This document shows positions 29,568 through 30,841 of a DNA stretch of 64,000 nt, piece after piece. The translations under genes were made by a program, and so were the position numbers. Below the pieces are notes generated by a model. That model had not been told where the DNA came from, did not search any database, and was given only the letters and a program-made list of their open reading frames with translations. Every line of letters begins with the position of its first letter. Positions within the stretch are counted from its first letter, which is position 1. Origin of the DNA: a virus (lineage: Duplodnaviria > Heunggongvirae > Uroviricota > Caudoviricetes); IMG/VR virus record IMGVR_UViG_2563366840_000001; one strand, written 5' to 3'.

Positions 29568-30542
29568 TTATCCGTTACCGCGCGACGGTTTCTGCGTGAT
29601 AAACGTCTCAAGCATCTTTTCCGCAATTGCCGACCAGGTGTGACACTGGACCTTTTCAGCATTTTTCACGCGATCAACGCGAGCAATAACCTCATCCCAA
29701 TCAATCCGCGACTTGATAACCATATGGTTCACCAAAGCCAGGCGATCTGGCGGAAGGCAATCTGGCGGCGTTAATATCAACGCCCCACACATTGCCGCCT
29801 CAAGAACAGTTAATCCAAGGCTTTCGGGATGCGTAACGATAAAAACGTCACTCTTACGCAATTCAGCTGCAAATTCGGTTGCTGGTACCGGCGTCCGTCT
29901 GTATGGAGTTACCGAAATATTCCCCGGATCAATGGTAACCAATCCGTCATCGGTCAACGTTATGGCCTCATACGGAACGGCCAGGCGCTGAAGGTTCATA
30001 AGGATACTTAAGGAGTGATCAAAACCACTAACATCAAATGCCGCATGGTCTACAAAAATACGCAGAACATCGTCTGTTTTGGTTTCCAGATGGAACAGCT
30101 CCTGATTCGCTGCCCATCCAACATGTTTGTTAAAACGATTATGACGCTCTAACCTGCCTGGATTATCCAGGTACCGCCAGGTATCATCGCGGACAGTAAA
30201 AGTAATATCGACTGGTGCCGAATCCAGCATAGAACCGTCGTATACCTGGGCTACCCATCCAGTGAATCGACGACGCAGTTGCACGCCTATTTCCCTGGGC
30301 ACCGTAGTAAAATACCTCAATCCTGGTGCCAAAATGGCCTTCGCAGAACATGCGGTCGCAGCAGTCAACACAGCTTCAACATAATCCTCCGGGCTTTCGA
30401 CGCCGGGGGAATATGGACGATGGTATTGCAATGTAACCCCTGCCTCACTAAAGGCGCAGGCCAGGTTATAAGCCCACATTTCCGTATATGTTTTCACATC
30501 ACTGATAGCTTCAAATTTTCGCCCAATGATCAGGATGTTCAT
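29568..30542 (-). CDS. Glycosyltransferase, GT-B fold (GT1/GT4-like), 324 aa
   Basis: MNILIIG N-terminus and VFIVTHPESLGLTVLEAAMCGALILTP C-terminal signature. Confidence 0.55.
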   Translation of the reverse strand: MNILIIGRKFEAISDVKTYTEMWAYNLACAFSEAGVTLQYHRPYSPGVESPEDYVEAVLTAATACSAKAILAPGLRYFTTVPREIGVQLRRRFTGWVAQVYDGSMLDSAPVDITFTVRDDTWRYLDNPGRLERHNRFNKHVGWAANQELFHLETKTDDVLRIFVDHAAFDVSGFDHSLSILMNLQRLAVPYEAITLTDDGLVTIDPGNISVTPYRRTPVPATEFAAELRKSDVFIVTHPESLGLTVLEAAMCGALILTPPDCLPPDRLALVNHMVIKSRIDWDEVIARVDRVKNAEKVQCHTWSAIAEKMLETFITQKPSRGNG

Positions 30543-30841
30543 TGCGTCTCCTTTTCCCTGACTAAAAGCTCATCCAGCTTGCTTTTATGTTTGAGCACAT
30601 AGCCACATATTTTTCCTTTGGAGCTAATTTGCGGAATGGAATAATATTCCGAAAATACTAATTCAGCCTTTTCTAAGACAAGTGAAACACCATAGCGCGC
30701 AACATGTCTGTCGGTCATTTTTGCATCACTGAGATTACCTTTAATTGATAACCAGTCGTTGAGGTACATATGGTTGCGATTGGCTTTTTTCAGCATGTTG
30801 CTCAACCAATTTTTATTACGCTTAGTTAGTTTCCGTTGCAT
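30539..30841 (-). CDS. Hypothetical basic small protein (100 aa), AT-rich gene
   Basis: ORF track; start overlaps ban stop, stop overlaps GT start. Confidence 0.45.
   Translation of the reverse strand: MQRKLTKRNKNWLSNMLKKANRNHMYLNDWLSIKGNLSDAKMTDRHVARYGVSLVLEKAELVFSEYYSIPQISSKGKICGYVLKHKSKLDELLVREKETQ

Follow-up and report, generated by a model that had tools for sequence, protein, structure and literature searches.

The ban gene of phage P1 encodes a DnaB-type replicative helicase, and in the P1 genome it is followed directly by dbn ('downstream of ban'), which the reference record NC_005856 labels 'function unknown, possible glycosyltransferase'. The same gene is called glt in phage P7. 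A genome-wide CRISPR interference (CRISPRi) screen in P1 found dbn to be non-essential (PMC10695390). Here, we analysed the corresponding region in 64,000 nucleotides (nt) of the IMG/VR virus record IMGVR_UViG_2563366840_000001, a P1-like phage-plasmid; this whole stretch is referred to as the window. An original prediction, made from the sequence without database searches, had described a glycosyltransferase gene and a gene for a small basic protein downstream of ban, and had regarded them as cargo in the ban operon. We found that the locus is the distal part of the P1 ban operon, in the order ban, a 100-amino-acid (aa) open reading frame (ORF) that we call ORF100, dbn and a terminator. The glycosyltransferase gene is dbn itself, and the comparisons described below argue that P1 and P7 have lost ORF100 by deletion. 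Taken together, the identity of the operon, the canonical status of dbn, the deletion of ORF100 in P1 and the roles proposed for ORF100 and Dbn make up an account that we consider probable. The features of the locus are listed here.

28889–29521, convergent with dbn: gene 5, a baseplate gene (Phage_base_V in Pfam)
29521–29547, no strand assigned: 11-bp hairpin with U/T-rich flanks, between the convergent dbn and gene 5
29568–30542, minus strand: dbn, encoding a 324-aa GT-B, GT4-like glycosyltransferase that starts MNILIIG, the first beta-strand of the model
30539–30841, minus strand: ORF100, encoding a 100-aa basic protein of family phrog_12809 (RefSeq WP_001569381.1, hypothetical protein)
30548–30553, minus strand: perfect Shine–Dalgarno site AAGGAG for dbn, within the 3′ end of ORF100 and 5 nt before the ATG, read from the sequence
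30841–32205, minus strand: ban, the DnaB-type replicative helicase gene of P1, 454 aa from the ATG at 32205
30848–30852, minus strand: Shine–Dalgarno site GAGGA for ORF100, within the 3′ end of ban and 6 nt before the ATG, read from the sequence
31062–31094, minus strand: position of the predicted sigma-70 promoter P1dbn, inside ban (P1 annotation; a prediction only)
31451–31478, minus strand: position of the predicted sigma-70 promoter P2dbn, inside ban (P1 annotation; a prediction only)

All three minus-strand ORFs were recovered in the predicted order and with the overlapping junctions that had been described: the ban stop and ORF100 start codons have 1 nt in common (TAATG), and the ORF100 stop and dbn start codons have 4 nt in common (ATGA). 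The ban ORF as listed is 456 aa long (30841–32211, minus strand) and reaches a GTG at 32211, and alignment with P1 placed the true start at the ATG at 32205. Its product matched DnaB_C (6e-108) and DnaB (3e-35) in Pfam and differs from P1 Ban at 3 residues. The description of the small gene as AT-rich and its product as basic also held, with a G+C content of 38.6% for ORF100 against 48.6% for ban and 48.9% for dbn, and a predicted isoelectric point (pI) of 9.9 (20 K+R versus 10 D+E). We judged co-transcription of ORF100 and the glycosyltransferase gene with ban, as originally predicted, to be plausible, and propose that ORF100 would be translated by coupling to ban.

The original prediction had taken canonical P1 to lack a glycosyltransferase, and this was wrong. 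A megablast search with positions 29400–32300 matched 18 P1-like phage records at 97.5–98.3% identity, each in two pieces, among them NC_005856 (P1), AF234172/3, P7, SJ46 and RCS47. P1 Dbn (P1_gp078, YP_006544; phrog_2518) is 97% identical to the window protein over 324 aa, and its gene has the same neighbours (ban and gene 5), strand and terminator region; P7 Glt is likewise 97% identical. We detected dbn-like DNA in 471 PLSDB plasmids and in 477 of 5426 complete Escherichia coli genomes. The idea that the glycosyltransferase gene is foreign cargo therefore fails, since dbn is a canonical, non-essential gene of P1, and because it is a standard P1 gene nothing new follows from its presence. 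What differs is the position next to it: in P1 dbn comes directly after ban, whereas in the window ORF100 is interposed. Comparison with the region downstream of P1 ban thus recovered the glycosyltransferase gene but not the pair, as ORF100 is missing there. Databases contain the ORF100-bearing form of the operon, but it is, as far as we could find, undescribed; the glycosyltransferase had been known before.

ORF100 is a true protein-coding gene that belongs to the uncharacterized phage family phrog_12809. Residues 1–100 of its product aligned to positions 1–104 of the 106 in the phrog_12809 hidden Markov model at an E value of 8.8e-46, and tblastn and profile searches identified approximately 30 relatives at roughly 25–43% identity. 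An exhaustive phmmer search over 1.84 billion representative sequences gave six matches, and a profile scan of genome contigs (alignment A4) found three loci. One of the phmmer matches, a repeat protein (P0008), was taken as a chance hit as only a 28-residue stretch matches. Every one of the 18 IMG/VR alleles of ORF100 is intact, with both synonymous and non-synonymous changes, although substitutions within the E. coli alleles were too few for dN/dS to be informative. Scans of ORF100 against Pfam, NCBIfam and PADLOC, and of 28 family members against Pfam, produced nothing consistent, while the family profile had no matches to Protein Data Bank (PDB) sequences at E≤10. Literature searches for WP_001569381 and phrog_12809 found no functional study.

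The distribution of ORF100 is patchy. Neither P1 nor P7 has it, nor does any of the 18 P1-like phage records, and even sensitive blastn revealed no ORF100 insert in phage records. We found it in 52 PLSDB plasmids, 18 IMG/VR contigs and 80 of 5426 complete E. coli genomes, in all of which it sits between dnaB/ban and a dbn homologue. ORF100 accompanies 11–17% of dbn carriers; conversely, dbn occurs without it in 419 of 471 plasmids and 397 of 477 genomes (~83–89% of P1-like elements).

Several features of the P1 sequence are consistent with a deletion. In the two-piece megablast alignments all 18 phage records span 275 nt less than the window, and P1 and P7 pass straight from ATGCAATGGAA to TGAGGAAAAGCCGATGAAC, between which the window has the whole 303-nt ORF100. 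The annotated dbn start of P1 is served by the same GAGGA site and ATG that serve ORF100 in the window. Annotated P1 Dbn consequently has eight extra N-terminal residues (MQWNEEKP), whereas dbn of the window starts MNIL behind its own AAGGAG, to which the stretch GAGGAAAAGCCG corresponds in P1. The first P1 codons, MQWN, resemble the N-terminal motif of the ORF100 family, M-[KQ]-[RK]-K, and were counted as one substitution from MQRK; GGAAAAG, a remnant of the ORF100 3′ end, then follows in P1. In the AlphaFold2 (AF2) model of Dbn the first beta-strand begins at residue 2 of MNILII, and the eight-residue P1 extension therefore lies outside the fold.

Diverged P1-like lineages have ORF100 homologues in the same slot. 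In Cronobacter phage JK004 the start of the homologue overlaps the stop codon of the gene for a DnaB-type helicase of 452 aa. In a 90-kb IMG/VR contig (L025) it overlaps the helicase stop codon, with gene 5 convergent a little further on, and the same overlap with a DnaB-type helicase is seen in two Salmonella P1-like lineages (L029–L032) and in a 94-kb contig of Candidatus Pantoea alvi (L038/L046). The genes after the homologue differ among these Cronobacter, L025, Salmonella and Pantoea lineages, and none has dbn there. The conserved slot, together with the retention in P1 of the Shine–Dalgarno site, the ATG, four codons and GGAAAAG, argues for a deletion in P1, and we infer with good support that a deletion in P1 and P7 joined an ORF100 relic to dbn. 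The ORF100-containing form would be ancestral, P1 would have undergone a net deletion of ~275 bp, and the relic (Shine–Dalgarno site, ATG, four codons and GGAAAAG) would have been fused in frame to dbn as an eight-residue leader. Two observations qualify this reconstruction: the 3′ side shows more than a clean deletion (GAGACGCA versus CCG), and the low G+C content of the E. coli ORF100 allele would also be compatible with a foreign allele that replaced an older one. In comparisons of the window with these P1-like lineages, Ban is 77–81% and gp5 77–79% identical, but ORF100 only 28–32%.

We also observed that the stretch between the ORF100 homologue and gene 5 is fully different among P1-like lineages (L005, L025, L029–L032, L038). 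In E. coli it is occupied by dbn; the other lineages have sets of 90–370-aa ORFs of unknown function, a NinX gene or a Peptidase_S24 gene there. For 77 P1-like plasmids, a published survey described eight variable regions, including tciABC next to ban, and dbn did not come up in a term search of the paper (PMC9603915). The stretch past the ORF100 homologue behaves as an accessory-gene hotspot that is not among the eight regions of that survey.

The AF2 model of ORF100 is confident (predicted local distance difference test score, pLDDT, 91.8) and shows an antiparallel two-helix hairpin (residues 2–22 and 27–50), a four-stranded sheet and a C-terminal helix. Structure comparison with this model found no related fold of known function. 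Members of the family have the N-terminal motif M-[KQ]-[RK]-K-L-x-x-R-N-[KQ], with R45 and R49 invariant and D55, P70 and G76 near-invariant. By composition, the 28 members examined are basic throughout (pI ~10 in the short forms), and their first 50 residues contain 10–16 K/R (at least 12 in all but one member) versus 1–5 D/E. The closest described proteins are in phrog_12809 itself, namely Av-05 gp060, Cronobacter phage JK004 gp34 and a protein of Vibrio phage phi 3, which have the N-terminal motif, R45 and R49 in common with ORF100; the phi 3 protein also has the same predicted fold (template modelling, TM, score 0.85). Relatives outside the E. coli P1-like elements are 28–43% identical to ORF100, the G+C content of which is below that of its flanks. 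The function of phrog_12809 is unassigned, so membership of the family explains nothing mechanistically.

Outside P1-like elements the homologues always occur in strings of small early or accessory genes. They follow an RlaP-type nucleotidyltransferase gene in Avunavirus phages, Zot and secretin genes in inovirus-like prophages of Brenneria and Xenorhabdus, and, by a few ORFs, thymidylate-synthase-like and dihydrofolate-reductase-like ORFs (assigned by sequence inspection) in a 116-kb phage contig (L028). One lies among HNH and Dam genes in a 45-kb contig (L037), another adjoins hok in a lambdoid prophage of Salmonella, with a DnaC-like gene nearby, and Vibrio phages phi 3 and JSF12 also carry family members. 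The inovirus and lambdoid members (P0015, P0019, P0021, P0026, P0029; L027, L033, L034) have a conserved acidic C-terminal extension, LPExYQSRWL...DFQIIRHDL..GTEEV.FDS, giving proteins of 114–158 aa with a pI of 6–8 in the longest forms; from its sequence, the extension looks like a second domain.

In a two-helix hairpin of this kind residues 4–9 would face residues 41–49, and the near-invariant K4, R8, N9, R45 and R49 should therefore form one patch. We propose that nucleic acid or an acidic partner could bind at this patch, at the open end of a hairpin with 12–16 K/R residues. The patchy spread, rapid divergence and presence/absence polymorphism of ORF100 resemble those of dispensable host-interaction or anti-defence genes. 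ORF100 would then be a dispensable, fast-evolving accessory factor of the host-takeover or anti-defence type, and not an obligate helicase subunit. Our best guess is an accessory protein that binds nucleic acid or an acidic partner.

Two candidate functions of ORF100 were rejected. The ribbon-helix-helix (RHH) domains of antitoxins (MazE7 6a6x, Rv0298 8u12 and TacA 7zg6) align with ORF100 over 41–48 residues at 6–9% identity. RHH domains, however, have an N-terminal beta-strand before the two helices, which ORF100 does not, whereas ORF100 has a beta-sheet and third helix that RHH domains lack; on the missing strand we rejected ORF100 as an RHH DNA-binding protein. A role in a type I or II toxin–antitoxin system was rejected as there is no hydrophobic segment, adjacent cognate toxin or other partner gene, or RHH strand.

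For Dbn, the AF2 model built with 50 homologues was of high quality (pLDDT 94.9, predicted TM score 0.90). A Foldseek search of the PDB gave 77 matches at E≤1e-3 and a GT-B fold of two Rossmann domains, as originally predicted. The top matches were all GT-B/GT4 enzymes (E 1e-9 to 1e-7): MshA (3c48), sucrose-phosphate synthase (6kih), GlgM (6tvp), BshA (3mbo) and PimB′ (3oka), with a Foldseek probability of 1.00 and TM scores of 0.43–0.69. These enzymes share with Dbn the EX7E motif in the C-terminal domain, but are only 9–14% identical to it and longer (360–440 aa, versus 324 aa). The motif in Dbn reads H238-P-E240-S-L-G-L-T-V-L-E248, and E240 and E248 are invariant in the 50 homologues, as are D102, H166 and H238.

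Profile searches supported the glycosyltransferase assignment in part. The Pfam model Glycos_transf_1 (PF00534) scored below its gathering threshold on Dbn (23.8 versus 26.4 bits, over residues 221–307 only), but phrog_2518 matched at 2.6e-231. A precomputed entry for the 332-aa cluster representative of Dbn lists PF00534, the NCBI cluster name is 'glycosyltransferase family 4 protein', and the Dbn profile had a marginal match among PDB sequences (8xsg, E 0.002). PADLOC models matched neither Dbn nor ORF100 at E≤1. The fold and the motif identify Dbn as a predicted cytoplasmic GT-B/GT4-like enzyme with an intact and conserved EX7E nucleotide-sugar site.

The P7 copy is unusual. In P7 (NC_050152, L002, 2669–3667), codon 23 of dbn/glt, counted from MNIL, is TGA in place of TGG, and the annotation of glt begins at an internal Met, giving a 287-aa product whose GT-B fold lacks its first strand and helix. 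Judged by this change, the P7 copy is probably not active, in keeping with dbn being non-essential.

Homologues of dbn elsewhere occur next to homologues of three other P1 genes, pmgO, pmgP and pmgQ. The RefSeq P1 names are 'alpha-2,3-sialyltransferase' for PmgO and 'glycosyltransferase' for PmgQ, and PmgO and PmgP gave sub-threshold matches to Pfam MptE-like (5.7e-5 and 3.3e-4, respectively). Like dbn, all three are non-essential in P1. In the window these genes are located as follows.

19762–20081 and 21385–21776, minus strand: pmgQ, split by an IS3-family insertion
~20082–21384, minus strand: IS3-family element in pmgQ, ~1.3 kb, with orfA at 21006–21332 and orfB at 20119–21009
22447–23073, minus strand: pmgP (P1 annotation; Pfam MptE-like, below threshold)
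22971–23633, minus strand: pmgO (P1 annotation; Pfam MptE-like, below threshold)

Dbn homologues at 55–57% identity are found in other phage-like contigs. In a contig with a lambda-type terminase (L043, 2337–5619), pmgO-like and pmgP-like genes, a 189-aa ORF with a weak match to nucleotide-diphospho-sugar transferases (GT-A), a dbn-like gene and a pmgQ-like gene are all contiguous. More distant homologues (32–35% identical) in two large contigs (L041, 2190–7395; L042, 3524–7425) are followed by pmgQ-like genes and have as neighbours genes for a bifunctional sugar-nucleotide enzyme, GT8, GT47 and a pyruvyl-transferase; in three unrelated contigs, the gene directly 3′ of the dbn homologue is thus a homologue of pmgQ. 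A further homologue, 42% identical, lies within a bacterial ATP-binding cassette (ABC)-transporter capsule locus (L050, 1260–5960) with KpsM/T, KpsC/S-type Capsule_synth and KpsD (Poly_export) genes, where it adjoins a gene for an MptE-like/WaaZ (Kdo III transferase)-like protein.

The contiguity in L043 points to PmgO and PmgP as putative partners of Dbn. We hypothesize that Dbn works with PmgO, PmgP and PmgQ in a multi-enzyme pathway that builds a glycan, to which it would contribute the transfer of a sugar from a nucleoside diphosphate (NDP)-sugar, and that the most probable target would be a lipid-linked glycan of the host envelope, of lipopolysaccharide (LPS)-core or capsule type. The gene neighbourhoods lend some indirect support to surface-glycan modification by Dbn, one of the roles suggested originally. 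A more specific and less likely reading is that this dispersed pathway remodels the host LPS core, which is the receptor of P1 itself. Literature searches on glycosylation by P1 dbn or pmgQ found no functional study. In the window, P1 pmgQ nt 1–392 map to 21776–21385 and nt 383–702 to 20081–19762, on either side of the IS3-family element, and because of this split the Dbn/PmgO/PmgP/PmgQ pathway may be inactive in the window element.

Other explanations of ORF100 were weighed against the accessory-factor reading. The gene is short, low in G+C content, absent from reference P1 and assigned a function in no library, as might be expected of a spurious ORF in an AT-rich intergenic insertion that gives no functional protein. 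This is scarcely credible in view of the full-length PHROG match, the 30 database relatives that keep length, N-terminal motif, R45 and R49 down to ~25% identity, the 18 alleles that stay intact despite both classes of substitution, and the combination of a Shine–Dalgarno site, a coupled start and a confident fold. The view of ORF100 and Dbn as one functional cargo module, acquired together, with the small protein as acceptor, chaperone or regulator, draws on their adjacency, the ATGA overlap and the position of the dbn Shine–Dalgarno site inside ORF100. Their independent distributions contradict such a functional pair: dbn is alone in most plasmids and genomes that carry it, the P1-like elements of Cronobacter, Salmonella and Pantoea, and other phages too, have ORF100 homologues but no dbn, and dbn homologues elsewhere have other neighbours. 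As dbn is moreover a canonical P1 gene and not cargo, we regard the module as very improbable. In the main alternative, ORF100 would be helicase-associated, acting as a loader, regulator or adaptor of Ban or as an inhibitor of host DnaB/DnaC, in stoichiometric coupling with Ban. All of the P1-like lineages found have the homologue immediately 3′ of a DnaB-type helicase gene, the stop codon of which overlaps its start, while the genes beyond differ; the lambdoid homologue of Salmonella is near a DnaC-like replication gene, and known loaders grip DnaB by helical-hairpin elements. Yet P1, P7 and >80% of P1-like elements lack ORF100 and have near-identical Ban (3 aa differ), no Ban allele tracks the presence of ORF100, and the linkage to helicase genes does not extend to the homologues in Avunavirus, the L028 contig, the inoviruses and the L037 contig. 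Searches by sequence and by fold also found no similarity of ORF100 to the loader families DnaC/DnaI, lambda P or DciA, and a helicase partner is, in our opinion, unlikely. It is similarly doubtful that ORF100 is a structurally new Ban-coupled factor that acts on the helicase or nucleic acid in early lytic or plasmid replication, or in anti-defence.

For Dbn, the competing explanation is that it glycosylates virion proteins or phage DNA with PmgO, PmgP and PmgQ, and not a host envelope glycan. The location of P1 pmgO–pmgQ within a block of late, 'putative morphogenetic' genes would fit this, as would the RecA-like and DEAD/ResIII helicase genes on the large contigs L041 and L042 that carry the dbn-like and pmgQ-like clusters. 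One Foldseek match of Dbn is the phage DNA-base glycosyltransferase HY126 (9ir0, E 7.9e-8), but it is no better than two dozen other GT4 matches. The 42%-identical homologue belongs to a bona fide bacterial capsule locus, all four P1 genes are dispensable for plaque formation, and P1 DNA is, to our knowledge, not glycosylated. We consider modification of virion proteins or DNA rather unlikely, and favour a glycan of the host envelope as the target of Dbn.

Transcription of the ban-ORF100-dbn unit probably ends at the hairpin at 29521–29547, which has a predicted RNA folding energy of −17.6 kcal/mol (z −4.3; none of 200 shuffled sequences folded as well) and would be a bidirectional intrinsic terminator. 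An Rfam scan of 29300–32500 gave only a sub-threshold rimP-leader match, over this hairpin. At the other end, the window is P1-like up to 32240, where a Mu/BcepMu-like prophage begins. This prophage runs from 32241 to beyond 61000 of the window and is 99.7% identical to Escherichia phage Phi06_2974 B and 96–97% identical to Klebsiella phage KP12. Its features nearest to ban and its transposase gene are listed here.

32240–32241, no strand assigned: junction of P1 homology and the end of the Mu-like prophage, ~36 nt upstream of the ban ATG
32403–32822, minus strand: Mor gene of the Mu-like prophage
32789–33406, minus strand: GemA-like gene of the Mu-like prophage
37021–38790, minus strand: 589-aa transposase gene of the Mu-like prophage

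The Mu-like insertion separates ban from its native promoter/operator region and from tciABC/trnI; the other ORF100 carriers do not have it. As the native ban promoter is displaced, transcription of ban-ORF100-dbn in the window must come either by read-through from the Mu-like mor, which has the same orientation, or from P1dbn and P2dbn, the conserved promoters predicted inside ban. The P1dbn hexamers are conserved in the window, in an alignment that is 97% identical, and a consensus scan also picked the P2dbn site (TTGAGA-16-GATGAT). An antisense sigma-70-like match within ORF100 (TTGATA-18-TATGGT, 30745–30774, plus strand) is probably due to chance, since four such sites were found in the region versus 4.9 expected from shuffles.

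These results indicate that the ban operon is incomplete in reference P1 and P7. A small basic protein, the gene of which is coupled translationally to ban, is encoded by the minority of natural P1-like phage-plasmids and by every one of the more distant P1-like lineages sampled. The annotated N-terminus of P1 Dbn would be a fossil of ORF100, and the annotation is corrected here. The tie between Dbn, PmgO, PmgP and PmgQ offers a testable hypothesis for four P1 genes that have been of unknown function since 2004, and ORF100 is a cheap target for knock-out and expression in a model phage. If ORF100 is indeed a Ban-coupled factor, it would have been missed in seventy years of P1 genetics through its deletion in the laboratory P1/P7 lineage.

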